Shown piece after piece: positions 217 to 17,259 of a stretch of DNA of 23,616 bases. How positions within the stretch are numbered: position 1 is the first letter of the stretch; each line of letters opens with the position of its first letter. Both the position numbers and the translations under genes were made by a program. The stretch lies in IMG/VR virus record IMGVR_UViG_3300040957_000063. One strand, written 5' to 3'. The stretch comes from an uncultured virus (IMG/VR IMGVR_UViG_3300040957_000063). Lineage: Duplodnaviria; Heunggongvirae; Uroviricota; Caudoviricetes. Below the pieces are notes generated by a model. The model searched no databases. It saw only the letters and a list, made by a program, of their open reading frames with translations, and was not told the DNA's origin.

Positions 217-232
217 TTAATCATCTGATTAA
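217..232. promoter_or_regulatory. Palindromic operator-like site 1 (TTAATC-ATCT-GATTAA)
   Basis: Perfect 6-4-6 palindrome between the minus-strand TATA box and the RHH start codon; one of four copies. Confidence 0.7.
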
Positions 233-247
233 CTATAACTACGGTCT

Positions 248-264
248 CCTATTTAAATCTTTCG
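248..264 (-). promoter_or_regulatory. Archaeal BRE+TATA promoter for the RHH gene
   Basis: Minus strand reads CGAAAGATTTAAATAGG; the TATA box lies about 35 nt upstream of ATG 214. Confidence 0.75.
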
Positions 265-296
265 TATTACATTATCAAAAATTGTAATACAACCGC

Positions 297-312
297 CATA
301 AGATTTATATAG
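297..312 (+). promoter_or_regulatory. Archaeal BRE+TATA promoter, divergent from the RHH promoter
   Basis: CATAAGATTTATATAG, followed by a GGAGA RBS and ATG 352. Confidence 0.75.
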
Positions 313-351
313 TAGTATGGTGTACTATTACCTAAACAAGGAGACATTAAA

Positions 352-1275
352 ATGTCACAAAACCCAGAAAATAAACCCAACCCTACGGAACAACCGAAGG
401 AAAAAGAAATAAAGATTACTGTTGACAATGAACAGACAAAGATTCTTGCAGAACAACTCGCTAAAGCCGAAGCCGCAAAGAAAGAAATGGAAGAGAAACT
501 ATCAAAGTTCGAAGCAGACGCAAAAATACAAGCTGAAGCCTCAAAGAAAGCACAAGAAGATGCCGAGGATTTACGTAACAAGCTCGGAATTATTGCTGAG
601 AAAGAGTTAGAAAAGAAACGGAAAGCTGTTTCTGAAAAAGCTAATGTTCTTTTGAAAGACCCCGAACGTGTTAAAGAAATCACAGATAAATTGAGTACCC
701 CTGACGGCATCGCCGCAATGGAGTACACAATGAACGTTCTCGAAAAGCAAATGAAGGTCGGCGAAGAGCAATTCAAACAATATCAAGAGGCAGAGCGCAA
801 GAAAGCCGAAGATGCCGCTAAACTTACTGAAGAGCAAAAGAAAGCCGCTGACGAAGCCGCTAAGGTTGCCGCTCAAGCCGCCGCCGAAGCCGCAAAAACA
901 GGCAAACCAGTACCAAAGCAAGAAACACCAGCGGGTTCAGCCCCATTAAATAATGCTCAGATGGGTAACCCAGCACCAACAGACTTAATGCATCAAAAGT
1001 TCGGAAGCTATGCCGCTATGGTTAGCTACCTACACGAGGTAGAGAATGGTCCAGACAAAGAAAAAGCCGCTGAAGCTAAAACTGCATTAAATGAACTTAT
1101 ACGAAAATGGGCAACATTGGTTAAACAATCTCACGATGCAATGACGAGCACAGGACCAGAAAATCTGTCAAAAGATACTCCCTCAATTCACGATATGACT
1201 TTGAGTAAACGCGCTAAAGAAGAATTAAGACGAAGAGAACAAGGTTTACCAGCACAAAGCGTGGTAACAGGATAA
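352..1275 (+). CDS. Coiled-coil protein, putative capsid scaffolding protein
   Basis: 307 aa, E/K/A-rich heptad-like helices, upstream of the major capsid gene; GGAGA RBS. Function inferred from composition and position only. Confidence 0.5.
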   Translation: MSQNPENKPNPTEQPKEKEIKITVDNEQTKILAEQLAKAEAAKKEMEEKLSKFEADAKIQAEASKKAQEDAEDLRNKLGIIAEKELEKKRKAVSEKANVLLKDPERVKEITDKLSTPDGIAAMEYTMNVLEKQMKVGEEQFKQYQEAERKKAEDAAKLTEEQKKAADEAAKVAAQAAAEAAKTGKPVPKQETPAGSAPLNNAQMGNPAPTDLMHQKFGSYAAMVSYLHEVENGPDKEKAAEAKTALNELIRKWATLVKQSHDAMTSTGPENLSKDTPSIHDMTLSKRAKEELRRREQGLPAQSVVTG

Positions 1276-1292
1276 AATAAAGGTGAACAAAA

Positions 1293-1745
1293 ATGACCGA
1301 TAAAAATGAAAAATATCCTATAAGCCCAATGCACAAGCAACTGAAAGAAGCCGTTTGGTATGAGTTAGAACGAGAAGGTTCCGTCACAGGAAGAGAAGAC
1401 GGTATCTTACACCGTATGAAATGGCTATTTAAACAAAAAGATTTCCCATGCCGTAATTGCGGTGGAATAGAATCAGTTACCTTTATGGTTCTTCCAACTG
1501 GCGTTTTTCGCTCGTGCGGAATTGAAGGCTGGACAGAAAAAATACAACCTAATCCTGAAGAAGAAGTCGATATGCCACACTATGAAGCGATATTGCTCGA
1601 AGACATAGTATGCAATAACCATCAAGCAAATGAAGTCGTCAAAACTTACCATCAAGAAAGGCTTTATTTCGACCCTGTACATACACTCTTTCCGTTGTAC
1701 AGACTTCCAAGAAAAGGCGTTCAAAGCGAAGATAGCGTACAGTAA
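1293..1745 (+). CDS. Hypothetical protein, possible Zn-binding (CRNC ... CNNH)
   Basis: 150 aa ORF with GGTGA RBS, followed by an oligo-T tract. Confidence 0.6.
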   Translation: MTDKNEKYPISPMHKQLKEAVWYELEREGSVTGREDGILHRMKWLFKQKDFPCRNCGGIESVTFMVLPTGVFRSCGIEGWTEKIQPNPEEEVDMPHYEAILLEDIVCNNHQANEVVKTYHQERLYFDPVHTLFPLYRLPRKGVQSEDSVQ

Positions 1746-1758
1746 AATCTTTCCCCTA

Positions 1759-1777
1759 TTTTCTTTTTTTATTTTTT
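1759..1777 (+). terminator. Archaeal oligo-T terminator
   Basis: CCCCTA followed by TTTTCTTTTTTTATTTTTT, just after the stop at 1745. Confidence 0.6.
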
Positions 1778-1829
1778 GTAACAACTTTGTTATATAACAG
1801 TTTTGTTGTTAATTTAACACTTTTTGAAA

Positions 1830-1846
1830 CAATAGATTTAAATAGG
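1830..1846 (+). promoter_or_regulatory. BRE+TATA promoter of the major capsid gene
   Basis: CAATAGATTTAAATAGG, about 50 nt upstream of ATG 1894. Confidence 0.75.
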
Positions 1847-1858
1847 AGAGTTGCGTAA

Positions 1859-1874
1859 TTAATCAGTAGATTAA
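1859..1874. promoter_or_regulatory. Palindromic operator-like site 2 (TTAATC-AGTA-GATTAA)
   Basis: Perfect palindrome about 15 nt downstream of the TATA box, over the expected transcription start. Confidence 0.7.
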
Positions 1875-1893
1875 AACAAAAGGATGAAAAATT

Positions 1894-2850
1894 ATGAACA
1901 CCGAAGAAATTTCAATTGAAGAAACTTTAACTGCCTCAACCGTTGTATCTGGATTAGGCGCATCTCCATTCTTAATCTACAGCGAAGTCTTTGAGTTGCC
2001 AAGACGACCATTGGTTTTCCTATCTCTGCCCCTTGAGGACTTTTCCTTGATTGGTAGCACAGGTAACACCATCCGTGGTATGTTCTTGACCCACATGTAT
2101 GCAAGCACAATCACAGAAGCCAACTTGGTTAATCCATCAGTCGGTATGGTCGCAACAACTAAGAGCGTAAGTAACTGGTTTGTCAGCGTTACAGACCCTA
2201 TATTTTCCGCTACTAACTTGTCCGACATATTGCTTGAGGACTTCCCAAACATCGAGTGGGTTAGAATCCACCTTCGAAACATGGGACTCGCCATTATGGA
2301 ATACCTTGACGCTTCAATCGCTGACCTTTACGAAGCTGGCGCGGGAACTCAATACACTACTTCAGGACATATGAGCTATAACTCAATTGTGTTAGCCCTC
2401 GCAAAGATGGAAAACGTAAATTGGGTTGTTGACGTTGCAAATCCACCGTTCCTAATCGTGTCACCTGACTCAGCCGCACAAATGCTACAAGACACTCAGT
2501 TCCTTGACAGCAAGCGTTATACGCTTTATGACTTGGGACGGATGATGGAAGGAGAAATCGGAATGTACGGCGGATGCCGTGTTCTAAAGACTCCATTGCT
2601 TTCGGGCACAGGTGTTGGCGGAACCCCATCAGACACAAATCAGGGCGTTGACTCTTACGCATACATCGTATTCCCGAATGATACTGGTCGTGGTCCTGTT
2701 ACATTGCTGGCTTGGAAACGAAGACTCGAAACTCGCAACTTCTACTGGACACAATGGGCGTACACCTACTACGTATCAAGCATACGAGCAAAGAGCGTTC
2801 TGGTCCAAAGCACAGGCGTTTGCAAGATAACCATCAACACAACTCCATAA
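1894..2850 (+). CDS. Major capsid protein (HK97 fold)
   Basis: 318 aa. Shows the L.G..GNTI segment, a spine helix (LRNMGLAIMEYLDASI), and the FLIVSP and GEIGMYGGCRVL motifs typical of P22/N4-gp56-like coat proteins. Has its own promoter and terminator. Confidence 0.8.
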   Translation: MNTEEISIEETLTASTVVSGLGASPFLIYSEVFELPRRPLVFLSLPLEDFSLIGSTGNTIRGMFLTHMYASTITEANLVNPSVGMVATTKSVSNWFVSVTDPIFSATNLSDILLEDFPNIEWVRIHLRNMGLAIMEYLDASIADLYEAGAGTQYTTSGHMSYNSIVLALAKMENVNWVVDVANPPFLIVSPDSAAQMLQDTQFLDSKRYTLYDLGRMMEGEIGMYGGCRVLKTPLLSGTGVGGTPSDTNQGVDSYAYIVFPNDTGRGPVTLLAWKRRLETRNFYWTQWAYTYYVSSIRAKSVLVQSTGVCKITINTTP

Positions 2851-2888
2851 GCTGACACACCACAATAAGGCAAGTTAAACTTCACCCC

Positions 2889-2904
2889 TTTTCTTTTTTA
2901 TTTT
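2889..2904 (+). terminator. Archaeal oligo-T terminator
   Basis: CCCC followed by TTTTCTTTTTTATTTT after the capsid gene; same architecture as 1759-1777. Confidence 0.6.
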
Positions 2905-2927
2905 ATACTAATTCTGTTTAGCATTAG

Positions 2928-2944
2928 CGATACCTTTAAATATG
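2928..2944 (+). promoter_or_regulatory. BRE+TATA promoter of the neck operon
   Basis: CGATACCTTTAAATATG upstream of the leader hairpin and ATG 3020. Confidence 0.6.
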
Positions 2945-2967
2945 GCGTTAATCATTATTCTTCTTAG

Positions 2968-2999
2968 GGTGCGGCTGAACTTAGTAGTTCGGGGGCATC
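2968..2999 (+). other. GC-rich stem-loop in the 5' leader
   Basis: GGTGC-GG-CTGAACT-TAGT-AGTTCGG-GG-GCATC: 5 bp and 7 bp stems (with G-U pairs), a 2x2 GG internal loop and a 4-nt loop. Confidence 0.55.
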
Positions 3000-3019
3000 G
3001 ATAAAAGGAATGATTCAAA

Positions 3020-5125
3020 ATGGCGTTGACGTTACCACCAGTTACTAAATATGAGTATTGGAATAGATTAGATAATTCTTCGACTGTTATTTGGGGTACA
3101 AATTTTGCGGCTCAATCATTCATTTGCGATGATGTACCTCACACGATAACTTTCGTAAAATTGAAACTTTCCAAAACAGGAAGCCCAACTTTCTTCACCG
3201 TAAGCATTCAACATATTAATGAAAGCGGGGTTCCAGATGGATATAACTTAGCAACTGAAATTATTAGTGCCAACGTTCTTACAGGTACCCCAACGTGGGT
3301 TACAATAAACTTTTCAACAGTAATTTCTATTGACTTAAATTCCGAGTATGCAATAGTTGTAAGTTGTACAGGAGACATAACTGACTATATCGGATGGAGT
3401 ACATCGGCTCACGATTATGATACTCCATTTTTCACATCTACTAACTCTGGAACAGTTTGGACAGAAAGCCCAATGACTGTCGCTTTGTTCGAAGTATGGG
3501 GAACTTCATCTGCTGGACCGCAAATTGGTCAAAACAATCAGATGATTTCAGTAACCGCTTTGGGTCAATGGTCAACCGAAGCTCTTGTATATCAAGTTAC
3601 AGGTATGAGTTCGACCATAGTTCAGAAAATGTGGGGCGGAAGTCAAGGAACTAAAAGCGCAACTGATGTAACAAATCTCATAAATGGCTACATAACAATG
3701 TGTGACCAGAGAATTCGCCACTTAATGGGTCTTCCATACACCATTAGAAAGGAATATCACGTTTTTCACTTCAACGAACAATTCAGAGAAATGGGACCAG
3801 CCGAAGATGAATATGAATTCTTTGACTACTATGACCCAACAGACCGAGTAGAGAAAGTCTTTGCTATTTACTCTAATAAAAAAAGATTGAAATATCCATT
3901 CCCGAAAAATTGCGATGACCTAACAGAAAACGTCAAAGTTGTAAGCACAGAACTTTCGATAAATGGAAAAGAATGGACTACAGACGACCTTCCGCGCCAG
4001 ATTCTATTGACTTTCAACTCTACAAACTATAATGCATTTGTTCCAGCAGATATTGGGGCAGTAGTTAATGCAACAACAGCTAATCCATATGTTCCTACAA
4101 CCACACCACAATATTCACTTTCTCAGTTTTCTCTTGATGCTATCGGAACATTAATCTCATATGACAATGTGGCAAAGACATGTATAGTTGGAACATATAC
4201 AATAGTAAATTCGCAACAAGTAATAACAAGAAATGCTACAGTTGATTTCCCAGCGGGAACTAAAATAAGCGTTTCTACAGAAAGTTGGACTCCAAATCAA
4301 TACAATATCTTATCTATTTTAACTTCTCGTGTTGCAAGTCCACCAATTACAACTTTAATTACTCAAGATACAAGCGACTTCCAAGCTGGAAAAGCAAGCC
4401 TTAGAGTTGAAGTAACTAACCCAAGCGGCGGAGTAGCTATCTTTCCAATGACTAAAAATTTAGCAAAAATGCAATACCCGTGGGATTATGTTGCATTTTG
4501 GATGAAAACAAGCGACCCAGCCGCATCATTTACTTTCAGAATGTATGACAGTCTCGGACGAAACGTTTGGCAACAATTCTATTGCGGAAACAACAACTTC
4601 AATATGACACTACAAATTAATCCAGCTTTACCCGACACATGGCAAATAGTTGCTTTGAAATTTATGCTTATGCAAGGTTATGCGGGCGGCGTAAATTGGG
4701 TTTTTGTTCCTGTACAATTCTTCACTATAGAAGTCGATAGACCGTGCGTATTCTGGTTTGACAATCTAAACTGGAACGATGGAATATTTTTTACCGCACC
4801 CAAAGGTTACTTATGCTGGTCAAGAAGCGAAATCGCGGCTATTGCTGACGAATTAGAAGTAACATATTCATTTGACCCGTTCAAACAAGAAGTGCCGAGC
4901 GATATAAGCTATGGCTCTGCAAAAATGGCTGGCGTATTGTTACTTGAATTTTTGATAGGCATTAGACAGCGTTCTACAGCTTTCACTCAAGGCTCAGACC
5001 AAATGCAAACTGGTCCAGACAAAGAAACTTTAGAATTCCGTAGAGCAGAACTTGAAAGACAAGTACAAGACTTCATAGCTGGAATAGGATTCAAAGGTAT
5101 CAGCGGAGTAAGTGCAGAGGGATAA
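3020..5125 (+). CDS. Head-tail adaptor (HK97 gp6/SPP1 gp15-like) enlarged with beta-sandwich/CBM-like domains
   Basis: 701 aa directly after the capsid gene. Adaptor-like helices (WSTEALVYQVTG...LINGYITMCDQRIRHLMG) and a C-terminal LEVTYSF...VPSDISYGSAKMA signature are separated and preceded by beta-rich domains. Confidence 0.55.
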   Translation: MALTLPPVTKYEYWNRLDNSSTVIWGTNFAAQSFICDDVPHTITFVKLKLSKTGSPTFFTVSIQHINESGVPDGYNLATEIISANVLTGTPTWVTINFSTVISIDLNSEYAIVVSCTGDITDYIGWSTSAHDYDTPFFTSTNSGTVWTESPMTVALFEVWGTSSAGPQIGQNNQMISVTALGQWSTEALVYQVTGMSSTIVQKMWGGSQGTKSATDVTNLINGYITMCDQRIRHLMGLPYTIRKEYHVFHFNEQFREMGPAEDEYEFFDYYDPTDRVEKVFAIYSNKKRLKYPFPKNCDDLTENVKVVSTELSINGKEWTTDDLPRQILLTFNSTNYNAFVPADIGAVVNATTANPYVPTTTPQYSLSQFSLDAIGTLISYDNVAKTCIVGTYTIVNSQQVITRNATVDFPAGTKISVSTESWTPNQYNILSILTSRVASPPITTLITQDTSDFQAGKASLRVEVTNPSGGVAIFPMTKNLAKMQYPWDYVAFWMKTSDPAASFTFRMYDSLGRNVWQQFYCGNNNFNMTLQINPALPDTWQIVALKFMLMQGYAGGVNWVFVPVQFFTIEVDRPCVFWFDNLNWNDGIFFTAPKGYLCWSRSEIAAIADELEVTYSFDPFKQEVPSDISYGSAKMAGVLLLEFLIGIRQRSTAFTQGSDQMQTGPDKETLEFRRAELERQVQDFIAGIGFKGISGVSAEG

Positions 5126-5127
5126 AT

Positions 5128-5685
5128 ATGTCAACAAGTGGCGGCGTAGATGTTCTACTTTCAAGCACACCAACTCAGGGAAGAATTTCTAATACAACAA
5201 TGGCTATGTTAGCAATTATAGCGGCATCAGACCCAAGTTTGCAACCTCAAACTCAACATGTTCTTCCAAATTGGAAAACACCAGTAGATTATTTATCAGA
5301 AAATTATCCTGTTGTAACTCTCAGAGTTGGTAACGTAGATTTATCTGACAAAATTTATGGTCGTTCAATGCCTCAAGGGGTACGTGGTCAGTATGTAACT
5401 TACGCATTTACGGCTCACGTTTGGGGAGAAAAAACTTGGCAATTATTCAATGATGTAGATGAAGAAAATGAAGCTGTTCCACAGGCTAATCTTGCAAGTG
5501 ATTTGGCAGATAAAATAATTGATGTTCTTGAGAGTTTTTCTGGCGATAAATACTCTGGGATAGTCTTTTTTGATAAGATAAAAGTCAGGGAATCCGAGCC
5601 TGAACGTGGACCACAAAGATTAACCAGAATGATAATTAGCGGATTTGTAAACGTTAGAAGACCGCTGGGTACATTCACAGGCTGA
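5128..5685 (+). CDS. Putative tail-completion / terminator protein
   Basis: 185 aa with the YPVVTL...FTAHVW...ASDLADKIIDVL pattern of gp17/gpU-like proteins; follows the adaptor. Confidence 0.5.
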   Translation: MSTSGGVDVLLSSTPTQGRISNTTMAMLAIIAASDPSLQPQTQHVLPNWKTPVDYLSENYPVVTLRVGNVDLSDKIYGRSMPQGVRGQYVTYAFTAHVWGEKTWQLFNDVDEENEAVPQANLASDLADKIIDVLESFSGDKYSGIVFFDKIKVRESEPERGPQRLTRMIISGFVNVRRPLGTFTG

Positions 5686-5690
5686 CCTAA

Positions 5691-5951
5691 ATGTATGCTT
5701 CTCTTATGCCTAACGTAAGACTAATTCCGATTGAACAACTGGTTTCTATACCTAACCCAGCAGAAAAACCAGAAGATTTTGAAATTAGGGTGAAAAGAAT
5801 AATGAAACTTATAGCTAACGGCGAAGATTTAGGACCTTTTGAAGTGCGTCAGGAAGGCAACTATTATATAATTGGTGATGGTCGCCACAGATTTGAAGCT
5901 ATGAAACGTCTTGGCTATAAAGCAATTCCGTGTATAGGTCTTTTTGTATGA
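5691..5951 (+). CDS. Stand-alone ParB/sulfiredoxin N-terminal domain protein
   Basis: 86 aa; IPIEQL...GPFEV...YYIIGDGRHRFEAMKRLGYKAIPC contains the GxxRxxA motif. Confidence 0.8.
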   Translation: MYASLMPNVRLIPIEQLVSIPNPAEKPEDFEIRVKRIMKLIANGEDLGPFEVRQEGNYYIIGDGRHRFEAMKRLGYKAIPCIGLFV

Positions 5952-6199
5952 TGAAACCACCTTCATTTATTTGGCATTCTGAGACAATTCCTATAGAGAA
6001 AATTACAGGTCAATTTGTTTTAAACATTGATTGTGAAGTTTTAAAGGAAAATATCAGGGTAAACAGCTTGAAAGAGCGGCTTTGGGTTGTTCCTAATGGT
6101 GACGGCACCTATAAACTCATAGAGGGTGTTCATAGGATAAAGGCATTGCGCGAATTAGGCTGGAAGGAAGTCCCCGTGATGGTTTTTGACCAATTTTAA
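5948..6199 (+). CDS. Second stand-alone ParB/sulfiredoxin N-terminal domain protein
   Basis: IPIEKI...LWVVPNGDGTYKLIEGVHRIKALRELGWKEVPV. Start moved to the ATG overlapping the upstream TGA (ATGATG at 5948-5953). Confidence 0.8.
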   Translation: MMKPPSFIWHSETIPIEKITGQFVLNIDCEVLKENIRVNSLKERLWVVPNGDGTYKLIEGVHRIKALRELGWKEVPVMVFDQF

Positions 6200-6211
6200 T
6201 CACCTGATTAA
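6196..6211. promoter_or_regulatory. Palindromic operator-like site 3 (TTAATC-ACCT-GATTAA)
   Basis: Perfect palindrome 13 nt upstream of the BRE of the replication operon promoter; overlaps the ParB2 stop codon. Confidence 0.7.
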
Positions 6212-6224
6212 ATAGAAAGTTGAA

Positions 6225-6242
6225 CCGCAACATTTAAATAGG
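6225..6242 (+). promoter_or_regulatory. BRE+TATA promoter of the replication/nucleotide operon
   Basis: CCGCAACATTTAAATAGG. Confidence 0.75.
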
Positions 6243-6273
6243 GGTAAGCCCATCTTCTTTGGTAGTGAAATAT

Positions 6274-7069: not shown

Positions 7070-7390
7070 ATGGCACAAAACCAAAATAGTCAAACCGAAA
7101 CTCTACCTATTGACGAAAACTTTGCTGTCAAAGAATACGAAAACATCTATAAAACAGGCAAATGGTGGTGCGCCGTTGTTCTTGTCAATGCTTTCGGGCA
7201 CGACAAAGTTATGGTGTACCTCTGGCAATTCAAAGAAAAGAAACGCAAGGAAGGCGACCAATGGGTAGGTACAGGTCAATTTAGTTGGAAAGTCCAACAA
7301 AAAATGGGAATCAATTTCCAAGAGAATTGGGACCACGAAAAAGCCGTAATCGATAGATTTATGGCGAAAATCAAAGGGGTGACAGCATAA
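7070..7390 (+). CDS. Small beta-rich protein, possibly PC4/YdbC-like ssDNA-binding
   Basis: Beta strands with exposed W/Y/K (KWWCAVVLV, VYLWQ, WKVQQKMGI) then a C-terminal helix; immediately upstream of RadA; GTGAT RBS. The fold guess is weak. Confidence 0.4.
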   Translation: MAQNQNSQTETLPIDENFAVKEYENIYKTGKWWCAVVLVNAFGHDKVMVYLWQFKEKKRKEGDQWVGTGQFSWKVQQKMGINFQENWDHEKAVIDRFMAKIKGVTA

Positions 7391-8388
7391 TGCCAGAAAC
7401 AATAAAAAACATTAATGGAATCATTGGAGAACTTGCTGACAAAAAGGGAGAAACTTTAATTGAATTCTATAAAGATAACAGAAATAAAACATTTACGTCT
7501 ATAGACCCATTCAAAGCATTTGAGAAAGAACAGGGTCAGCTTAAACTAAAAACTGGAACACTCATTGATGATATGGTGGGTGGCGGATTTGAAGCTGGCG
7601 CATCTATGCTTCTTTATGGTGAATACGGTTCTGGCAAAACAGAAACTTGCTTCACAATGTCTGTTCTTTGTCCCGATGTCATAATCTATATAGATTGTGA
7701 AGGCTCATTTAAATGGTCCAGAATAAAAGAAATTTGCGACCAAAGAGGATTAGACTATAAAGTCGTATTCGAGAAAATTAAACTTTTCCAGCCAGCTAAT
7801 TGGATTGAACTTTTGATGGTTATGAACCAATTGCCATCGCCGTCAGACGTTGGAAAAATAGGTTTAATCATTATTGACTCATTGACAAAATTATTCCGTG
7901 GAATTGAATTCGCTGGCAGACAAGAACTTCAAGTGAAACAACCCCCTCTAAGAGAATTGATGTTACACTCACAAGAGGTTGCTAAAGTTTTCGAGTGCGT
8001 TGTAATATTCACTACTCAGATATACTCATCTCCAAACGCAAACTCATTTATGCCAGAATGGTCAACTTTCCATGCTGTAGGCGGCGCATCAATAGAACAC
8101 CAAGCCAGTTATGTTATGTTCCTAAGACGAGCACAGGGAAACGTTCGTATTGCACGACTAACAGATTCAGATTGGAAACCATTGTCAGAACGTCCATACA
8201 TCATAACTGCAAAAGGAATCGAAGACCTTCCAGATACAAAGACCGCTCAAGACCTCATAGAAAAGACGGAAAAATACGAAAAGAATCAATCAGAATCATT
8301 GCGAGACAAAAAAACAAGAGGAAAATCCGAAGAAGAACCTAAATCCGAAGAACCTCAAACAGAAGAACCACCGAAGGAAACTGCATAA
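7390..8388 (+). CDS. radA: RadA/Rad51-family recombinase
   Basis: KTG..IDDMVGGG, Walker A GEYGSGKT, IYIDCEGSF, Walker B LIIIDSLTKLFR, AVGG..IEH, RIARLTDS; short N-terminus and acidic C-terminal tail. Confidence 0.9.
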   Translation: MPETIKNINGIIGELADKKGETLIEFYKDNRNKTFTSIDPFKAFEKEQGQLKLKTGTLIDDMVGGGFEAGASMLLYGEYGSGKTETCFTMSVLCPDVIIYIDCEGSFKWSRIKEICDQRGLDYKVVFEKIKLFQPANWIELLMVMNQLPSPSDVGKIGLIIIDSLTKLFRGIEFAGRQELQVKQPPLRELMLHSQEVAKVFECVVIFTTQIYSSPNANSFMPEWSTFHAVGGASIEHQASYVMFLRRAQGNVRIARLTDSDWKPLSERPYIITAKGIEDLPDTKTAQDLIEKTEKYEKNQSESLRDKKTRGKSEEEPKSEEPQTEEPPKETA

Positions 8389-9887: not shown

Positions 9888-11024
9888 TTGGATAGGGACC
9901 ACGTAACTAAGGAAGAATTCCTTCTCGAATACTACGGGATGCTTTCCAGAGAATTAGGCAACCCCCCAGCCGAAGGTCGAAGACGATATTTCTCGGATAA
10001 CCCAAACGACATCTTTGAATGTATTCAATTTAGCATAAATAATAAGGTGCCAGCATTCATTAGCGTCCAACCCAGAGAATCTTTTGATAGGGTTCAGGGT
10101 ATAGAAAAACTGTTTTTTGACTTTGACTATGCAGACAAGCATTCGGTTAAGGAGTTAGAAGCCAGAATAAAAGACCCTAAGAAACGGGAAGCAATCTATG
10201 AAAAACGAAAGATAGATATGAAGTTCGAAGTGGAGTTTTTTCTCAATAAACTTCAGGGTAGAAGGATAGTTCCTCTCGTGGTAAAAACCCGAAAAGGATT
10301 CCACGTTTACATCTATCTCGACCAAGTTTACCCATTGTCGATTGATAATGAAGACTTACTTAAAGAAGTCTATTACCAACTTCAATACAACTTTATGCGG
10401 GACAAGAAAGGCGGTTACAAATACTTAGATAACTCAGTCATTGGCGATGTAAAAAGGATGTGCAGAATTCCAACTTCTGTTCACGAAGTAAGCGGTGAAG
10501 AATGCTTTGTCGTAGAGCGAATAGTTAACGGAAATGTAATTCCAGCTAAGTTCAGAGGAATAGACCATTTCAGGTTAAATGGTTTAAAAAGCTCAGATTG
10601 GTTACGTGCTATTGACTCGGCGTTCCGTGCAATAAAACGTAGAGAAGAAGTTGCTTTAAAAGAAGAAGCCGCACGTATAAAGGAAATGGAAGAACATAAA
10701 GGCGAACCAGAATATACCCCTGAGATTAGACCGTGTTTCAAACGGCGTATGGAAACTGGTGAAATGGGTCATCAAATGCGTCTTGCTCTTGAGCTTGAGG
10801 CATATTGGGCTGGTTATAAAACTAAAGAAGCTATGATGGAATTGTTCAAGTGTTTTCACGATTATGACGAACAAAAGACACGGGACCAAGTAGAATGGTT
10901 TTTCAGAAATAGGGTTCCAGACATAGACAAGAGCAAAAGATGGAAGCCTTATCGTTGTTCAACTCTTGAAGAACTTAACCTTTGTGATAAACTTCAATGT
11001 CCAAAATATAACCGAAGGAAATAA
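9888..11024 (+). CDS. Archaeo-eukaryotic primase: PriS catalytic domain fused to PriL C-terminal (Fe-S) domain
   Basis: AEP motifs LFFDFD, TRKGFHVY and GDVKRMCRIP; C-terminal RPCF...GHQMRLAL...YDEQKTRDQV...YRC...LC...CP with four Cys; TTG start. Confidence 0.85.
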   Translation: MDRDHVTKEEFLLEYYGMLSRELGNPPAEGRRRYFSDNPNDIFECIQFSINNKVPAFISVQPRESFDRVQGIEKLFFDFDYADKHSVKELEARIKDPKKREAIYEKRKIDMKFEVEFFLNKLQGRRIVPLVVKTRKGFHVYIYLDQVYPLSIDNEDLLKEVYYQLQYNFMRDKKGGYKYLDNSVIGDVKRMCRIPTSVHEVSGEECFVVERIVNGNVIPAKFRGIDHFRLNGLKSSDWLRAIDSAFRAIKRREEVALKEEAARIKEMEEHKGEPEYTPEIRPCFKRRMETGEMGHQMRLALELEAYWAGYKTKEAMMELFKCFHDYDEQKTRDQVEWFFRNRVPDIDKSKRWKPYRCSTLEELNLCDKLQCPKYNRRK

Positions 11025-11025
11025 A

Positions 11026-11148
11026 ATGAATAAAAACCAAAGAAAAAATAGACCAAGAAAAAAAGAAGTACCTCAGAAAACTTGGAACAATACGTTTGAA
11101 AACATAAAAAGGCAGTTTGAACATGGCGGCAGACAAGAAGAAAATTAA
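11026..11148 (+). CDS. Small basic hypothetical protein (40 aa)
   Basis: ATG 11026 directly after the primase stop; MNKNQRKNRPRKK... Confidence 0.35.
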   Translation: MNKNQRKNRPRKKEVPQKTWNNTFENIKRQFEHGGRQEEN

Positions 11149-11338
11149 TCGCCCAGCGAGAATTCCGCCACGCGATAAGCAATCACATGCTCAATATGTG
11201 TGGATTAAAGAGATGTTCGCTCGTCAAACAAGATTGGAAGGACGGATTGTAGATATGGAAAAAGAAATTTCTGATTTAAAAGAATCCGTAAAGTTTATTA
11301 AGGACGAGATAACTAAGATAGAACAGATAGGTGATTGA
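11123..11338 (+). CDS. Small coiled-coil protein
   Basis: Heptads LEGRIVDMEKEISDLKESVKFIKDEI. Confidence 0.55.
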   Translation: MAADKKKINRPARIPPRDKQSHAQYVWIKEMFARQTRLEGRIVDMEKEISDLKESVKFIKDEITKIEQIGD

Positions 11339-11822: not shown

Positions 11823-11840
11823 TTTTTTTCCTCTGTTTTT
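11823..11840 (+). terminator. Oligo-T terminator at the end of the replication operon
   Basis: TTTTTTTCCTCTGTTTTT immediately after the stop codon. Confidence 0.55.
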
Positions 11841-11860
11841 GACCCATTATTGACCCATTA
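11839..11860 (+). repeat. Tandem 11-bp direct repeat (TTGACCCATTA x2)
   Basis: Exact copies at 11839-11849 and 11850-11860. Confidence 0.8.
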
Positions 11861-11884
11861 TTATACATTTTTGGATTACAATCA

Positions 11885-11902
11885 CCATAACATTTAAATA
11901 GG
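11885..11902 (+). promoter_or_regulatory. BRE+TATA promoter of the portal gene
   Basis: CCATAACATTTAAATAGG; GTGAT RBS before ATG 11935. Confidence 0.75.
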
Positions 11903-11934
11903 CGGTTGCTTAATACTATTGTTGTAGTGATGCT

Positions 11935-14271
11935 ATGTCTGAAGATAAACCCAGAAAACCGCGTACACCAAAGCGTAAGCCAAAGAATTTCTCAGCCAAA
12001 GACTTAAATTCATATATTATAGATGAGGCTGGAAGAACAGGAAAAAGTAAAGAAGAAATCTTAGAGGAAACGTTCCATGATGGATTCGTTGTAGTCAGCG
12101 AATCGGCTGACGGTGCCTTTAAGGTTGAAGGCGGACAGCTTTTCAAAAACAAAGAAGATAAAGTTGATGACTTAACTGAATGCCGCCGATTGCGGGAACG
12201 GTTTGGTCCAATATCTGCTTGTGTCGAATACATCAAAGACGTTATTATGGGAAGCGGATTTGACGTTGTAGTTGACGATTTTCACGATGAACGTCAACGA
12301 AAAATACAGGGAGATGTTCTGGAATGGATGGATACGGTTTATCAAGACGTTTATACAGTTGGGCTAAATGCTTTACTTGACATTCTTGTTGATAATGCCA
12401 TTGTAGAAGGTTTCTCTGCCGCTGAAATGGTTTTTACAGGCGCAAAAGGTGACCTGTTTAGCAAATATGCTAAAGTAGTAACATCTTCAGTTGTTACTCA
12501 GGAAGGCGGAAGGCTACAAAAATCTGATACTACTTCTTATGAGATTTCAGACCCTAATTGGGAAGACCTAAAGGGAATAGCTCGTCTAAAAATCTTTTTG
12601 GACGCTCCAACACGACTTAGACTTTACAGAAAAGGCGCAACTTGGGAAGCTGATTATTGGGTTCTTGACCAACCTAACGTTGCTGGTGCTCAGGGTGGAA
12701 TGACATCTTCAACTCAAAAGAACCTTCAACAAGGTGCACCTATGCAAATGACAAGTGCCGACTTAGTAGCTTCAACTATGCCGAATGCAAGCACAAGCAA
12801 ACCTCAAACGGTTGCTAAACCATCTGCTTATTTCCTTCCGTGGCAGATATTCTCACTTTCACTTAACCGAAGAACTTGGTTAGAAAAAGGTCCAAGTTTA
12901 ATTCTTCCAGCAATGAAAACCGCACAATTACTTGAGAAAATTATGAATGCCGTTGGCGAAGGAATTTACCGAGCGGGAAACAAGAAATATTTCATTATTT
13001 GCGGAACAAAAGACCGTCCGTGGGGAGCAATACACATTAGAAACTTACTGTCACAAATTAAAGATGCATCCGAGAAAAACTGGTCCACAATTCCAGTTCC
13101 AGCGGGCTTTGACCTAAAAGAAGCTGGCGGACAAGTCTTTGAAGCTCAAAACGCTATAAACTATTTCCTAAGAATAATCGCTGGCATAATGCACGTTAAC
13201 CCGTCAGTTTTAGGCTTAGACACTCGTGAGGCAAGAAACGTAACCGAATACCCCTACTTTACTCATCTAAGAATGAAAGAGTCATTAAAGAACCAAGTTA
13301 GAACCCAACTTATTAGACTTCACATCTGGGCAAAATACGGCGAGAAACTAAGCAAACAAGGCGGATATGTTGACCCACAATGGATTCCACAACTTAGAGT
13401 AAAAACAGAAGATTTGCTTAATCCAGCAGACCGTTTGAATTTAGACATTGCTATTCTTAATGCGGCTAACCCTGTTATGCCACAGACTAAACTCGAAGTT
13501 GAACGTGACATCGTAATAACAAGAGGATGGGAAGTTGACCTTCCAACTCAAGAACAGTTTATGAAAGAACAAAATGAGCAAAAAGATAACCAAAAGAAAC
13601 AAGACGATGCAGATACAAAGTTGAAACTTGAACAATCTAAAGCATCACTTGAAGCATTGAAGAATCCACAAAAAACTCAACCACCAAATGGTGATGGCAG
13701 TAATCCAACTAATACCCCTGTTACACCACCTAATACTACAGAGACACCAAAAACTATGGGTCCACCTAATCCACCGAGCAATGCAAAACAACAAAAGAAA
13801 CTTCAGAATAGCACAAATAAGAAAGGCAAATCTCCGAAACAACCACCCAGAGGGACTACAAGAAAACCAGCGGAAATTCAAGAATCCGAAGAGGGTGAGG
13901 AAGTTGAAGAATCTTTGGAAGATGAACAAATTCAGGAACCTATACAGAATGAACCTCAGAAAGTTGATGTTAACATAAACGTAACAACCAAATCAGAACC
14001 AATAAAGACCGAGCCTATTGTCGTAAAAACCGAAAAACAAGAAGTTGAGGTTACTATAAAACAAGCCGAGCCAAAACCTCAAGAGCCTACTAAAATTGAG
14101 CTTAACATCAAAAACGAACCTCTGACAATAAAGACTGAAAAACAGGAAATAGAAGTTAAACTCAAGGAAGACCCAGAAAAGACCGCTGATGAAAAGGCAA
14201 TTCGTGAGCAGAAAAAGAAACTATTAGATGATATGTCAAAACAGGTAAAACAGGAAGTTGAGCAACAATGA
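11935..14271 (+). CDS. Portal protein with long low-complexity C-terminal extension
   Basis: 778 aa. ISACVEYIKDVIMGSGF, NAIVEGFSAAEMV, GPSLILPA...helix and IAGIMHVNPSVLG match the portal architecture; the last ~240 aa are Q/K/P/T/E-rich. Confidence 0.75.
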   Translation: MSEDKPRKPRTPKRKPKNFSAKDLNSYIIDEAGRTGKSKEEILEETFHDGFVVVSESADGAFKVEGGQLFKNKEDKVDDLTECRRLRERFGPISACVEYIKDVIMGSGFDVVVDDFHDERQRKIQGDVLEWMDTVYQDVYTVGLNALLDILVDNAIVEGFSAAEMVFTGAKGDLFSKYAKVVTSSVVTQEGGRLQKSDTTSYEISDPNWEDLKGIARLKIFLDAPTRLRLYRKGATWEADYWVLDQPNVAGAQGGMTSSTQKNLQQGAPMQMTSADLVASTMPNASTSKPQTVAKPSAYFLPWQIFSLSLNRRTWLEKGPSLILPAMKTAQLLEKIMNAVGEGIYRAGNKKYFIICGTKDRPWGAIHIRNLLSQIKDASEKNWSTIPVPAGFDLKEAGGQVFEAQNAINYFLRIIAGIMHVNPSVLGLDTREARNVTEYPYFTHLRMKESLKNQVRTQLIRLHIWAKYGEKLSKQGGYVDPQWIPQLRVKTEDLLNPADRLNLDIAILNAANPVMPQTKLEVERDIVITRGWEVDLPTQEQFMKEQNEQKDNQKKQDDADTKLKLEQSKASLEALKNPQKTQPPNGDGSNPTNTPVTPPNTTETPKTMGPPNPPSNAKQQKKLQNSTNKKGKSPKQPPRGTTRKPAEIQESEEGEEVEESLEDEQIQEPIQNEPQKVDVNINVTTKSEPIKTEPIVVKTEKQEVEVTIKQAEPKPQEPTKIELNIKNEPLTIKTEKQEIEVKLKEDPEKTADEKAIREQKKKLLDDMSKQVKQEVEQQ

Positions 14272-14654
14272 GCAACGAAGAAATAGACCAAATACGATTC
14301 TACGCTGACGCTGAATGCACTCAGCAAATTTCCACTATTGAGTGGAACAACTCTGTTAAAATAACTCTTGCGGACAAAACTACCAAAGTTATCCCGAATA
14401 CTGCTCTTGGCGGAGAAAATGCAGTTGCAATAGTTTGGGTTAGAAATGAGGGGCAATTTGACTACGGTATAACCAGAATATCATTTTCCGATAATCGAGT
14501 ACAAGTTATTCTCTCTTCTGCTTGGCTTTATCCTAAAGTTCCTGTTCAAGTAACACTTATCTTCATTGTGCCCCCTAACCCTACAAAAAATGATATAATG
14601 AAAGCTGGAAAAATCAATATCGAAGGATTCTATATCTACAAATCCCTTCAATAA
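14268..14654 (+). CDS. Hypothetical beta-sandwich (Ig-like) protein
   Basis: 128 aa, coupled to the portal gene (ATGA overlap); VWVRNEG and VQVTLIFIVP strands. Confidence 0.55.
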   Translation: MSNEEIDQIRFYADAECTQQISTIEWNNSVKITLADKTTKVIPNTALGGENAVAIVWVRNEGQFDYGITRISFSDNRVQVILSSAWLYPKVPVQVTLIFIVPPNPTKNDIMKAGKINIEGFYIYKSLQ

Positions 14655-14675
14655 TCCCTATTTACACTTTTTAAC

Positions 14676-14692
14676 CCATAACATTTATATAC
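14676..14692 (+). promoter_or_regulatory. BRE+TATA promoter of HNH gene 1
   Basis: CCATAACATTTATATAC. Confidence 0.7.
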
Positions 14693-14723
14693 TTGATTGT
14701 AATGTTATTTCTTGTGATATATA

Positions 14724-15155
14724 ATGGTATTCAAGTTCGAACACCCAGAAAACAGACATCAGAGATTTTATGCAAATCATAGAGAAGAGATTAAAATACA
14801 ACAAAAAGAGAGAAAACAAAATATGACAGAAGAACAACGAGAAGACAAACGAGAATATGAACGGACGTATTCTAAGACTGAAAAATTTAAACGTCATAGA
14901 CATTTATATTATCAAAAACTTGTTGAAAAATATAAAACCCAAGTATTTGAGAAGTTAGGTAACAAATGTGTTCGTTGTGGATTTTCTGATAATAGAGGAT
15001 TCCAAGTGGACCACATTAACGGCGGTGGGCATAAACAAAGAGGAATAATGAATGCTGTGAAGTTCTTTAAATATGTTTTAAATCATCTTGAAGAGTTTCA
15101 ACTTCTTTGCGCTAACTGCAATCAGATTAAACGAATAGAAAACAAAGAAAATTAA
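14724..15155 (+). CDS. HNH endonuclease (free-standing, homing-type) 1
   Basis: Basic helical N-terminus; CVRCG, QVDHINGGG and QLLCANCN motifs. Confidence 0.85.
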   Translation: MVFKFEHPENRHQRFYANHREEIKIQQKERKQNMTEEQREDKREYERTYSKTEKFKRHRHLYYQKLVEKYKTQVFEKLGNKCVRCGFSDNRGFQVDHINGGGHKQRGIMNAVKFFKYVLNHLEEFQLLCANCNQIKRIENKEN

Positions 15156-15171
15156 AAAGTGTTATATTTTA

Positions 15172-15188
15172 CCGAAAGATTTATATAC
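15172..15188 (+). promoter_or_regulatory. BRE+TATA promoter
   Basis: CCGAAAGATTTATATAC. Confidence 0.7.
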
Positions 15189-15224
15189 TTCTATTGGAAT
15201 TTTTAACATAGAAGGATTGAGAAT

Positions 15225-15848
15225 ATAGTAGCGACTGTCGTAATTCAAGAAGTAACAGGCTCAAGCGTTACATACCAAACCGTAACCAACAGAACAAGAT
15301 TAATGACGGTAGATGCATTCACGAACCAAACTACAGCACAGACATCCAATCCAGTTATTATTCCCGCCGCCGCTGGTCAAGGCTATGCAAGCGGAAACTA
15401 TAACTACAGTTTTTGGAAGAGCATTTGCTTAGACATTTCTGGTTCAGGATTCATCATATCAAACATAAACCACTATTCAAACGGCGACATTACTGGCACA
15501 TGGACTTTCGGTACTGGTGGTGCCCTCAATAGAGGAAGCATAACTGGTGCAAAAGGCTCAGTAGCACAAGGATGCCCAACAGCAAACTACGCGCAAGCAA
15601 CAGGAGTGGTCGGAACAAGCGGAGACCCAATCGACAATGCAACAGCGGGACACCCATACTATAAATCAAGCGGTGGTGTGGCAGATGTTAACAGCGACAC
15701 ATCAGGTTCATTAGCTCTAATCGATGCTGGTCCATATTCAGTTGCAAGCAAGTCGAATATGATTGTTTTGCAAGTTAAAGTTGGATACGATGGAACACAA
15801 GGAACACAAACCGCAAGAACCCTAACTTGGCAATATGACGAATCTTGA
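15225..15848 (+). CDS. Putative virion structural protein; probable ATA start
   Basis: The frame is open from 15207 with no ATG/GTG/TTG before 15303. ATA 15225 follows GGATTGA and gives (M)VATVVIQEVTG. G/T/S-rich, ends LTWQYDES. Confidence 0.6.
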   Translation: MVATVVIQEVTGSSVTYQTVTNRTRLMTVDAFTNQTTAQTSNPVIIPAAAGQGYASGNYNYSFWKSICLDISGSGFIISNINHYSNGDITGTWTFGTGGALNRGSITGAKGSVAQGCPTANYAQATGVVGTSGDPIDNATAGHPYYKSSGGVADVNSDTSGSLALIDAGPYSVASKSNMIVLQVKVGYDGTQGTQTARTLTWQYDES

Positions 15849-15850
15849 GA

Positions 15851-15878
15851 TGTAAATATTATTACAACAATATTTACA
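15851..15878. repeat. 10-bp inverted repeat (TGTAAATATT-N8-AATATTTACA)
   Basis: Perfect arms at 15851-15860 and 15869-15878, starting 3 nt after the stop codon. Confidence 0.7.
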
Positions 15879-15940
15879 AGTAAAAGCCTGTTATCAGCAA
15901 TCCAATGCTATAATAGAAATCCGAATACAATCGGTTACAC

Positions 15941-15951
15941 TTTCTTTTTTT
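15941..15951 (+). terminator. Oligo-T tract, possible terminator
   Basis: TTTCTTTTTTT just before the next promoter. Confidence 0.4.
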
Positions 15952-15962
15952 GTTAAATATAA

Positions 15963-15979
15963 CCGTAACATTTATATAT
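15963..15979 (+). promoter_or_regulatory. BRE+TATA promoter of HNH gene 2
   Basis: CCGTAACATTTATATAT. Confidence 0.7.
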
Positions 15980-16014
15980 TAGTATTACTATTATAGTATT
16001 TACAAGTGAAATAT

Positions 16015-16494
16015 ATGTTCGACCAAAAAATATATAATCAAAACTATTATCAAGACCATAAAGAAGAACATGACAAGACTACTAAAGAATGGGCTAAAAA
16101 TCATCCAGAATATCAGAGTAATTATTATCAAACTCATAAAGAGAAAAAGTTAAAACAAGCGTCTGATAGTCAAAAGAAAAATTTAAAAAAGATAGAAGCT
16201 CGAAATAGAGATAAACATCATGAGAGAAAAATGAGAGCCTTTGAATTGCTTGGTAATCAATGTGCTAATCCTTATAATATAAATCATGGAGATTTTCCAA
16301 ATTATCCAGATTGTTTACAAATAGACCATATTAACGGTGGTGGTTCTCAACATCATAGACAAAGACAAACTGAAGGAATAATTTCAGATGTTATAAAGGA
16401 CCCAAACCGTAAATTGAAATATCAACTACTTTGCGCTAATTGTAACTGGATAAAACGTTTTATAGAAAAAGAACATAACCAAAAACTTCCGTAA
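16015..16494 (+). CDS. HNH endonuclease 2 (paralogue of HNH 1)
   Basis: FELLGNQC, QIDHINGGG and YQLLCANCNWIKR motifs; N-terminal Y..NYYQ.HKE repeats; ATG 16015 follows a GTGA RBS. Confidence 0.85.
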   Translation: MFDQKIYNQNYYQDHKEEHDKTTKEWAKNHPEYQSNYYQTHKEKKLKQASDSQKKNLKKIEARNRDKHHERKMRAFELLGNQCANPYNINHGDFPNYPDCLQIDHINGGGSQHHRQRQTEGIISDVIKDPNRKLKYQLLCANCNWIKRFIEKEHNQKLP

Positions 16495-16506
16495 CATTTA
16501 AATAGT
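16489..16506 (+). promoter_or_regulatory. BRE+TATA promoter overlapping the HNH2 stop codon
   Basis: CCGTAACATTTAAATAGT; the TAA at 16492-16494 is the HNH2 stop. Confidence 0.7.
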
Positions 16507-16535
16507 GGAACAAGTATGTACTATTTGTGATAAAT

Positions 16536-17243
16536 ATGTCATATGAAACACGCCATCCATTAGTGTATTTCTGGGTAGCATTTTACAAAGACGGAAATTG
16601 TCTTCCACAATTTGACGTTAACTCTGGAATAGAAAATTCATTTCAAACTATAGACCAAACCAAAGTAGAAAAATTTGGGCTTTTTCCATTTAGTCCAGCA
16701 TTGGTTTTAAAAGTTAATTCGGCGGCTGGCGTAATTATAGCACGAGAAGTCGAGAACTTGCCATATTATATTATGAAAGTAGAAGAGGGGCAACGTCTAA
16801 TTAACATTCGAAGAAATTTTATTCATCAATTTACTTACCAGCATTGTGCCAAATGCGGGTATAATTGGCAATGGATGATGGGTCATAAAGAGGGAGAGAT
16901 TGCCGAATTTGGACTTCCGATATGCGATAATCACGTTGTCCAAAAAGTTCAAGGAAAAGATATGGGATTCCCTAAATGTCCTAAATGTGGAGCGTATAAT
17001 TCAATAGTATGCCCCGATTGCGGTACTCTTATTAATGAAATGGCGAGACCAGATACTAAAGAGCACTATTTTTTATGTCCAAAGTGCAACAAGGAACATC
17101 CAAGATACATTAAAATTTTGGAAGATAATAAGAGGCGGCTAATCTACATTATGGGTTACCAAACAACCGTTGATGGCAAAAACGTTAAACAATTAATGTT
17201 CATAGGAGAAGACGGCGTAATAACGCTCAAAAGCGACCTATAA
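16536..17243 (+). CDS. Hypothetical protein with four internal CxxC motifs (two Zn ribbons)
   Basis: CAKC, CPKC, CPDC and CPKC lie between beta-rich N- and C-terminal parts; GTGAT RBS before ATG 16536. Confidence 0.7.
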   Translation: MSYETRHPLVYFWVAFYKDGNCLPQFDVNSGIENSFQTIDQTKVEKFGLFPFSPALVLKVNSAAGVIIAREVENLPYYIMKVEEGQRLINIRRNFIHQFTYQHCAKCGYNWQWMMGHKEGEIAEFGLPICDNHVVQKVQGKDMGFPKCPKCGAYNSIVCPDCGTLINEMARPDTKEHYFLCPKCNKEHPRYIKILEDNKRRLIYIMGYQTTVDGKNVKQLMFIGEDGVITLKSDL

Positions 17244-17259
17244 TTAATCTACTGATTAA
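17244..17259. promoter_or_regulatory. Palindromic operator-like site 4 (TTAATC-TACT-GATTAA)
   Basis: Exact reverse complement of site 2; abuts the BRE of the tail-fibre promoter. Confidence 0.7.

Follow-up and report, generated by a model that had tools for sequence, protein, structure and literature searches.

Gene regulation in archaeal viruses is known from very few circuits, and those characterised, according to the extract of the source drawn on here, come from small crenarchaeal viruses (PMC5569661). In the same extract, the small viral proteins SvtR (SIRV1), AvtR (AFV6), and F55 (SSV1) bind repeats at or near their own promoters and structural or early promoters; SvtR targets a tail-fibre gene, F55 has sites that extend over the start site and the TFB-recognition element (BRE), and AvtR both activates and represses. 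The sites themselves are imperfect inverted or tandem repeats found at a handful of promoters (PMC5569661). The present analysis concerns a palindrome, TTAATC-N4-GATTAA, in a stretch of 23,616 nucleotides (nt) from the uncultured virus IMGVR_UViG_3300040957_000063, which in its full length is referred to as the window. Unlike the sites of SvtR, AvtR, and F55, this element is a perfect 16-bp palindrome that is present up to 35 times in a head-tailed virus of ~112 kb, and the local ribbon-helix-helix (RHH) protein does not appear to be its binder. We consider it about 65% probable that the palindrome is a cis-regulatory site for a putative dimeric, sequence-specific protein, and that it marks a regulon of archaeal head-tailed viruses of ~90-150 kb.

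The window is identical, letter for letter over 12.8 kb, to L001, a 92.7-kb contig from a peat metagenome that represents the same virus; the analysis of this virus covered 31.7 kb. Loci of relatives are designated L###; G001 (112 kb) and G002 (94 kb) are complete genomes with terminal repeats from IMG/VR, and G003 is a 1.3-Mb genome bin.

A direct precedent for one protein acting both ways by position is TrmBL1 of the Thermococcales, for which the available extract gives repression of nine out of nine templates with downstream sites and activation of two out of three templates with upstream sites (PMC4706686). The rule on which the earlier note on this DNA had relied, that archaeal regulators repress from downstream of the TATA box and activate from upstream of the BRE, is documented for TrmBL1 in that extract (PMC4706686). 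The palindrome resembles the TrmBL1 (TGM) sites, as presented there, in being a dyad that occurs at many promoters and in both geometries (PMC4706686). In contrast, TrmBL1 is a host factor that acts on host metabolism through an unrelated motif, whereas the palindrome, among the genomes searched, is confined to viral ones. SurR is another archaeal regulator with position-dependent action.

Cluster A mycobacteriophages such as L5 and Bxb1 carry dozens of repressor-site copies, the stoperators, in short intergenic gaps, according to the parts of the sources used (PMC9283540, PMC6550527); these are described there as asymmetric, bound by monomers, and oriented with transcription (PMC9283540). The 35 sites that lie between operons in G001 are similar to stoperators. 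The 31.7 kb seen of the window's virus contain only four exact copies and one near-copy. On the other hand, the palindrome is symmetric, and the window itself contains only four sites. No temperate marker (integrase or repressor family) was found by Pfam in 177 open reading frames (ORFs) of G001, 29 of the window, and 14 of L001, which is weak evidence.

Operator regulons of viral or archaeal transcription factors are a known kind of system, and the virus group was without description in the literature searched: a search on DPANN and archaeal virus capsids returned nothing on this group, and the 16-mer TTAATCAATTGATTAA was not found either. A single sharp 16-bp element marks capsid, replication, and tail-fibre promoters in a large uncultivated archaeal tailed virus, and it can serve as a handle for delimiting the transcription units of these genomes and sorting them by timing, as well as a DNA bait for fishing out its regulator. 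The sites also form a natural set of both geometries for testing position-dependent repression and activation on archaeal promoters.

Palindrome sites and promoter geometry

An exact pattern search with the 12 arm bases fixed agreed with the four perfect palindromes that the earlier note had placed at 217, 1859, 6196, and 17244, with their common orientation, TTAATCAGnnGATTAA, and with the presence of a reverse-complement pair, which comprises sites 2 and 4. No match occurred in 100 dinucleotide-preserving shuffles of the window, and the composition-based expectation is ~0.007 per window, close to the ~0.01 estimated beforehand. When up to two mismatches were allowed, three weak matches were added, and the resulting total of seven was reached by three of the 100 shuffles; the four exact sites thus stand alone in the window. 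All four are intergenic, and none lies wholly within an ORF of at least 50 amino acids (aa), as a manual scan had indicated; site 3 shares 4 nt with the stop-codon end of ORF 5930-6199. The spacer bases are not oriented consistently with respect to the genes. Outside the window, ~2.5 kb before its first base, L001 carries a fifth copy at 5558-5573, TTAATCAGTTGTTTAA, which has one mismatch; a ParB_N-like gene ends 13 nt before this copy, and a BRE/TATA promoter follows 22 nt downstream.

A hairpin role for the palindrome, as an intrinsic terminator or structured RNA, is unlikely, since the four sites could form only marginal hairpins (-2.8 to -3.7 kcal/mol) and none of them is followed by a T-run. 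Furthermore, transcription from the promoters with downstream sites would be expected to start inside the palindrome, so that the transcript would not hold both arms.

Promoters were scored with a matrix built from 168 regions upstream of ORFs of at least 100 aa in this virus group, which replaced an initial TATA pattern that had proved too narrow. The group consensus, AACCRWAA-NN-TTTAWATA, consists of a BRE followed by a TATA box, and is strongly oriented and unusually sharp. The 11-mer ATTTAAATAGG occurs exactly five times in the window (248 on the minus strand, 1836, 6232, 11892, and 17267), and a copy with one mismatch is found at 16496. Four of the five exact copies flank palindromes, and the portal promoter (11892) and the promoter at 16496 carry this type of word without a palindrome.

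Two sites of the window are located 14-17 nt 3' of a TATA box (RHH-HNH and capsid genes), and the other two are 8-21 nt 5' of one (replication and tail fibre). The individual distances of 17, 14, 21, and 8 nt that were obtained with the matrix bear out the earlier assignment of two sites downstream of TATA and two upstream of the BRE. The count was extended to 79 sites of the window's virus and its relatives, 18 of which lie downstream of a matrix-scoring TATA box. The gap is 12-17 nt in 17 of these 18, which represent about seven independent promoter contexts and precede genes for the capsid, RHH-HNH protein, scaffold (L013 and L014), portal (G003_C5), and two unknown products. Another 15 sites, including sites 3 and 4, are situated 8-27 nt upstream of a matrix-scoring TATA box, with the replication and tail-fibre operons of the window, MCM (G001 and G003_C9), and a phosphoesterase-like gene (G001, L011, and G003_C107) following them; many small-gene operons of relatives also have a palindrome upstream of TATA. 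For eight sites the nearest scoring promoter is 59-72 nt away, and 38 have no scoring promoter in range, 23 of these in G001. Several of the unscored G001 sites are followed by TATA-like words that lack the BRE consensus, as read by eye from the flanks without a count. The remarkable part of this geometry is the tight 12-17-nt spacing of the downstream class.

Archaeal transcription starts ~26 nt from the TATA centre, and start-blocking repressors of polymerase recruitment bind there. With a gap of 14 nt, the dyad falls at this same distance, and its overlap with the start site is predicted from the usual archaeal TATA-to-start spacing. At sites 12-17 nt 3' of TATA (capsid and RHH-HNH in the window; scaffold and portal in relatives), the dyad would thus coincide with the transcription start, and a protein bound there would permit the binding of TBP (TATA-binding protein) and TFB (transcription factor B) and would block the recruitment of RNA polymerase, resulting in repression of mostly structural genes. 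At sites 8-27 nt 5' of TATA, next to the BRE (replication and tail fibre in the window; MCM and small-gene operons in relatives), the same protein may modulate TFB/TBP loading, either activating by recruitment or repressing by occlusion or looping. The upstream class is where archaeal activators bind, and at 8 nt occlusion of the BRE would be equally possible. Repression at the start-site copies appears to be the best-supported step of this putative mechanism. A dyad site at several promoters, a start-site class, and a BRE-upstream class, all of which are features of position-dependent archaeal transcription factors, were found together.

Conservation in related viruses

Relatives are present on contigs of 60-152 kb. 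The motif was found again in relatives with capsid proteins of only 36-92% identity, and its exact form in 15 of the 84 loci examined. G001 contains 35 copies compared with none of a reversed control, and since the sequence is TTAATCAATTGATTAA or TTAATCAGTTGATTAA in nearly all of these, the consensus can be lengthened to a 7-2-7 arrangement, TTAATCA-NN-TGATTAA. The bin G003 contains 21 copies compared with no control match; 20 of the 21 are on contigs with protein homology to G001, which indicates that those contigs are viral. With these copies and those at the capsid promoters described below, the motif is kept in relatives, as the earlier note had proposed to check. The motif is absent from G002 (0 copies), which may use a different regulatory motif. 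G002 was observed to contain 71 TTAA-N8-TTAA words, compared with 20 in controls, including repeated non-palindromic TTAAYTCTRTNTTTAA words (27.6-29 kb).

The genes of G001 are almost all on one strand, and its sites are located in gaps between operons, often a few nucleotides after the stop codon of the upstream gene. Twenty-three of the 35 G001 sites are in no ORF of at least 40 aa, and the other 12 are in ORFs of 41-108 aa; across all sequences, four of 80 sites are in ORFs of at least 100 aa. About half of the G001 sites (L203-L208; for example those at 15636, 40030, 56357, 67325, and 78749) also have an extra RAAAGA word on one side (GAAAAGA-TTAATCA...), usually the upstream side in gene orientation, and this word is absent from the four sites of the window.

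In the capsid promoters of eight relatives, the invariant columns are almost only those of the TATA box and the palindrome, with a mean column identity of 64%. A perfect six-pair palindrome 12-17 nt after TATA was detected in 10 of 40 non-redundant capsid promoters, compared with 1.4% of shuffles, and several others among the 40 have a five-pair palindrome. In the capsid promoters of other, more distant lineages the two arms have changed jointly, giving TTAAGT..ACTTAA (L027 and L028), TTAAGC..GCTTAA (L048), and TTAACC..GGTTAA (L035). Symmetry that is kept through such changes is predicted by a dimer-binding site, or by a hairpin. The arrangement of site 1 is repeated in L002, L006, and L009, and site 3 is kept in L006 at 14184, with an insertion of ~300 nt directly after it. 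A scan of IMG/VR with a 14-base palindrome gave, among the matches listed, single chance-like matches only and was uninformative. Taken together, the sequence comparisons indicate that the palindrome is functional.

The half-site variants sort related viruses into possible specificity groups. A tentative extension, which we would not favour at present, is that of a viral genome-wide switch, in which an unrecognised dimer, possibly of a new fold, would shut structural promoters at the start site and would control dozens of operons for early functions and replication, driving or gating them from upstream. The protein and its site could then diversify as a pair from TTAATC to TTAAGT, TTAAGC, and TTAACC, forming immunity-like specificity groups, and the system might be a symmetric archaeal counterpart of the stoperators. 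A viral factor with an unrecognised fold would represent a new family of archaeal virus transcription factors.

Candidate binders and alternative explanations

Several observations weigh against a simple operator regulon. Pfam revealed no helix-turn-helix (HTH) or other regulator in 148 small and 29 large ORFs of G001, nor any regulator in 29 selected ORFs of the window and 14 ORFs in the 8 kb upstream on L001, apart from a weak RHH match. The proximity of an intergenic element to promoters is not surprising in itself, and the upstream gaps spread over 8-27 nt with no single helical phase. The claim of the earlier note that all sites are beside promoters is true of the four in the window, but it does not extend to G001, in which the matrix detects no promoter within 80 nt of 23 of the 35 sites; the element is mostly, but not exclusively, linked to promoters. 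Some sites of G001 are also clustered, three to six together, where there is little coding sequence (37.7-39 kb and 44.4-45.9 kb). The structural and replication modules of the window are syntenic with those of G001, but the capsid promoter of G001 and the rest of the syntenic region are without any site, and in L002 the palindrome of the capsid gene has shifted to upstream of TATA. Membership of the regulon is fluid. Host assignment by co-binning alone and homology breaks at palindrome edges, both discussed below, are to be added on this side.

The RNA data on the capsid promoter may point in the same direction. Contigs from three RNA (metatranscriptome) libraries of two studies hold parts of the capsid gene, and two of them start at 1888 (X22) and 1889 (X23, directly after an Illumina adapter), so that these ends are separated from the palindrome by 14 nt and from the capsid ATG by 5-6 nt, and lie 21 nt 3' of the start predicted from TATA. 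If this is the primary 5' end, the placement of the dyad on the start site is wrong for the capsid promoter. A transcript from 1888/1889 would lack the Shine-Dalgarno-like word (GGAG or GGTGA) found before the ATG of most relatives (judged by eye), and we take this as a weak hint that 1888/1889 is a processed or secondary 5' end. A contig of a DNA run also begins near there, at 1925. The palindrome was also considered as a core promoter, as 1888/1889 lies 26 nt from the centre of its left arm. This was rejected, since by that rule the RHH-HNH transcript would begin inside its ORF, and the starts at sites 3 and 4 would fall within the canonical TATA box.

The same operator mechanism could be served by a host transcription factor that is exploited by the viruses, although we regard this as unlikely. 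The 16-mer is identical or nearly identical in viruses with capsid proteins that are only ~46% identical, as would fit a conserved cellular protein, and neither the Pfam results above nor a PHROG scan gave a viral candidate for the binder. A 73-aa basic coiled-coil protein of the window (11117-11338) with a weak match to bZIP_1 (E 0.056) was rejected, because bZIP half-sites abut and those of the palindrome are 10 bp apart. The only cellular link of these viruses is to the bin G003, by co-binning only; the genomes of its relatives are 0.3-2.0 Mb, which would fit a DPANN-like group. On the other hand, the motif is at chance level in this cellular group. Among 370 other genomes of the phylum of G003, the exact motif occurred as nine single copies compared with three for controls, approximately the expectation from composition, and in 40 relatives of G003 there were ~509 matches with up to two mismatches compared with 408 for controls (summed by hand). 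These counts argue that there is no host regulon in that group. Furthermore, different viral lineages have different half-site variants, and co-evolving viral pairs would account for this at least as well as a host factor. Among the genomes searched the palindrome is confined to viral DNA, and we lean towards a virus-encoded binder.

The viral candidate implied by the binding assays that the earlier note proposed is the RHH protein encoded beside site 1, which as the binder of the palindrome would regulate its own gene. This protein, referred to here as RHH-HNH, is predicted by AlphaFold (mean pLDDT 85.8) to have a coil-helix-helix N-terminus and a C-terminal HNH-like zinc domain. Foldseek matched the N-terminal part to the RHH domains of PutA and CopG (target TM 0.71-0.80 and probability 0.91-0.96, with whole-chain E-values >1); an HNH nickase was matched by the C-terminal part, and the model has a weaker resemblance to T5 SciA. 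The Pfam matches (DUF6290 and HNH_5) are weak, and an Atlas look-up gave HNH-family leads only, at 0.90 or below. The predicted RHH fold, the presence of the gene across the virus group at the same place, and the position of site 1 over the expected start of this gene, likewise in L002, L006, and L009, are consistent with autoregulation, as is G002, which lacks the motif and, in its locus, a detectable homologue. We nevertheless consider this candidate poor and its role as binder doubtful. The N-terminal strand that is predicted to read the bases differs widely (RSVRLG in the window's virus, HTSVWIK in G001, and TRITITL in G003_C5) among viruses with the same palindrome. Of seven close relatives, L001, L002, L006, and L009 carry the palindrome at the RHH-HNH promoter and L004, L005, and L008 carry the gene without it; it is absent from this promoter in more distant relatives as well, and L030 and L050 have the gene and no palindrome in 18-21 kb.

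The constant companion of the RHH-HNH promoter is another repeat. The inverted repeat GTATTAC-N13-GTAATAC, which lies between the divergent RHH-HNH and scaffold promoters of the window, is conserved at the same place in L002, L004, and L005, and distant relatives have tandem repeats of the GTATGAC, GTATTAC, or GTGTCGCAC type just before the RHH-HNH start. The GTATTAC-type repeat is probably the RHH-HNH protein's own operator. Together, the variable strand, the palindrome at only four of seven promoters, and the constant GTATTAC repeat suggest that RHH-HNH is not the binder of the palindrome. The overall interpretation of the earlier note is partly supported: the non-random element in two geometries stands and is conserved in relatives, the RHH candidate is poor, and promoters are not beside every site outside the window. 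Activation of some modules and repression of others by one factor is a prediction.

The palindromes could also be recombination sites at module borders, used by a site-specific recombinase or as short conserved sites of homologous exchange or insertion. Homology to relatives breaks at palindrome edges in three cases: compared with L006, there is a 113-nt insertion at the window virus's own 8320/8321 (L006 8292-8404) and one of ~300 nt right after site 3 (L006 ~14201-14501), and compared with L004, homology starts at the first base of site 2. Moreover, the element is at differing promoters in relatives, as in the moved capsid copy of L002. These breaks lend some circumstantial support to the recombination alternative that had been raised before. 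However, no integrase, recombinase, or transposase was found by Pfam in the scanned ORFs (177 of G001, 29 of the window, and 14 of L001), and the 12-17-nt spacing from TATA, together with invariance within diverged spacers, is that of a conserved operator island, at which mosaic joints can be a by-product. The contigs of DNA run X9 had no joints at palindromes and no RNA contig bridged any of sites 1-4; both sets are of low depth, with low power in the case of X9, and are uninformative either way. Recombination is accordingly an improbable primary role. The insertions of L006 at palindrome edges consist of small genes, one of them a zinc-ribbon ORF of ~38 aa between the palindrome and the RHH-HNH start. 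Integron-like cassettes were considered for the small-gene region of G001 and rejected, as no integrase was found.

A parS site has the format of a 16-bp palindrome, and the plasmid-prophage N15 has a few palindromic centromere sites scattered near regulatory regions, beside genes of the ParB family. Dispersed parS-type sites for a ParB-like protein, which would serve episome segregation with secondary effects on promoters, would match this format. Two ParB_N-like genes lie in tandem at 5691-6199, and site 3 overlaps the stop codon of the second, the copy with one mismatch at L001 5558 follows a third, and G001 has multi-site clusters. Unlike in N15, neither a full-length ParB nor ParA was seen in the window. 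Its ParB_N-like proteins consist of N-terminal domains only, below the Pfam cutoff and without an HTH domain detected by Pfam, and have no tblastn match in G001, the genome richest in sites; segregation also leaves the tight TATA spacing unexplained, and we hold this role to be very improbable. Least probable of all are cleavage or nicking sites of the multi-copy viral HNH-type nucleases, comparable to the site-specific nicks of phage T5: HNH-like genes are numerous in the window, L001, and G001 and the RHH-HNH model resembles nicking enzymes, but three of 16 RHH-HNH homologues have another residue in place of the first HNH histidine, nothing ties the free-standing HNH genes to the sites, and the promoter geometry is unexplained.

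Coordinates and gene content of the window

The features discussed above are listed in Table 1. The four gene labels of the earlier note (RHH, capsid, replication, and tail fibre) hold, some of them on weak matches.

Table 1. Features of the window, with coordinates in the window unless L001 is given.
Feature	Position	Strand	Remarks
Palindrome 1	217-232		TTAATCATCTGATTAA; 2 nt before ATG (214) of RHH-HNH gene; 17 nt 3' of minus-strand TATA
Palindrome 2	1859-1874		TTAATCAGTAGATTAA; 14 nt 3' of capsid TATA; centre approximately at expected archaeal start site
Palindrome 3	6196-6211		TTAATCACCTGATTAA; over stop codon of second ParB_N-like gene; 21 nt 5' of next TATA
Palindrome 4	17244-17259		TTAATCTACTGATTAA; begins right after stop at 17243; abuts BRE-like CCATAAG; 8 nt 5' of TATA
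TATA box, RHH-HNH promoter	250-257	-	TTTAAATA inside ATTTAAATAGG; matrix score 21.3
TATA box, major capsid gene promoter	1837-1844	+	Matrix score 19.7; invariant in 8 relatives
TATA box, replication operon	6233-6240	+	BRE-like CCGCAAC just upstream; matrix score 24.0
TATA box, tail-fibre gene promoter	17268-17275	+	Matrix score 24.8
Inverted repeat GTATTAC-N13-GTAATAC	264-290		Between divergent RHH-HNH and scaffold promoters; separate candidate operator
RHH-HNH gene, 5' part	2-214	-	Full length 124 aa at L001 7947-8321
Major capsid protein gene	1894-2850	+	HK97-type, N4-gp56 family; two PHROG major-head-protein matches, E 2.6e-5 and 4.6e-5
ParB_N-like genes, tandem, overlapping	5691-5951, 5930-6199		86 and 89 aa; N-terminal domain only; Pfam below cutoff
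Replication operon	ORFs from 6259 onward	+	RadA 7390-8388; primase-like gene 9888-11024
Free-standing HNH-like genes	14724-15155, 16006-16494; L001 153-581, 2789-3301		Lysine/tyrosine-rich N-termini
Tail-fibre gene	17315-20758	+	1147 aa; Peptidase_S74 at C-terminus

The gene content of the window is that of an archaeal-type head-tailed virus, and megablast of the window against GenBank phages gave no match. By coordinates, the window overruns the end of the 92,670-base L001 contig by ~1.3 kb, which indicates that it stems from a different assembly of this virus, one that is longer or permuted. PF25209 was found in homologues of the capsid protein, and a capsid search of IMG/VR returned no locus with the single protein and two with an alignment. 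The replication block encodes a Rad51/RadA recombinase (Pfam) and has a match to DNA_primase_S (E 9.2e-4, 20.1 bits) that is below the Pfam cutoff of 26.8. A portal-sized protein and several HNH-like genes are also encoded in the window, and no tRNA gene was found in the window, L001, or G001. The third ParB_N-like gene is at L001 4925-5545, just outside the window. Members of the HNH-like gene family were located by tblastn at ~8 places in G001, and look like insertions of the homing-endonuclease type. In addition to MCM, G001 encodes an archaeal LonB, RadA, and a Topo VI-A-like protein. Its loci (L206 13704-14333, 9593-10414, and 11652-12320; L207 14419-16527 and 17110-19110) comprise a ribosomal L10e/L16 homologue, two DruA-like proteins, the LonB protease, and the MCM helicase, and the genome also contains a sugar-modification gene block.

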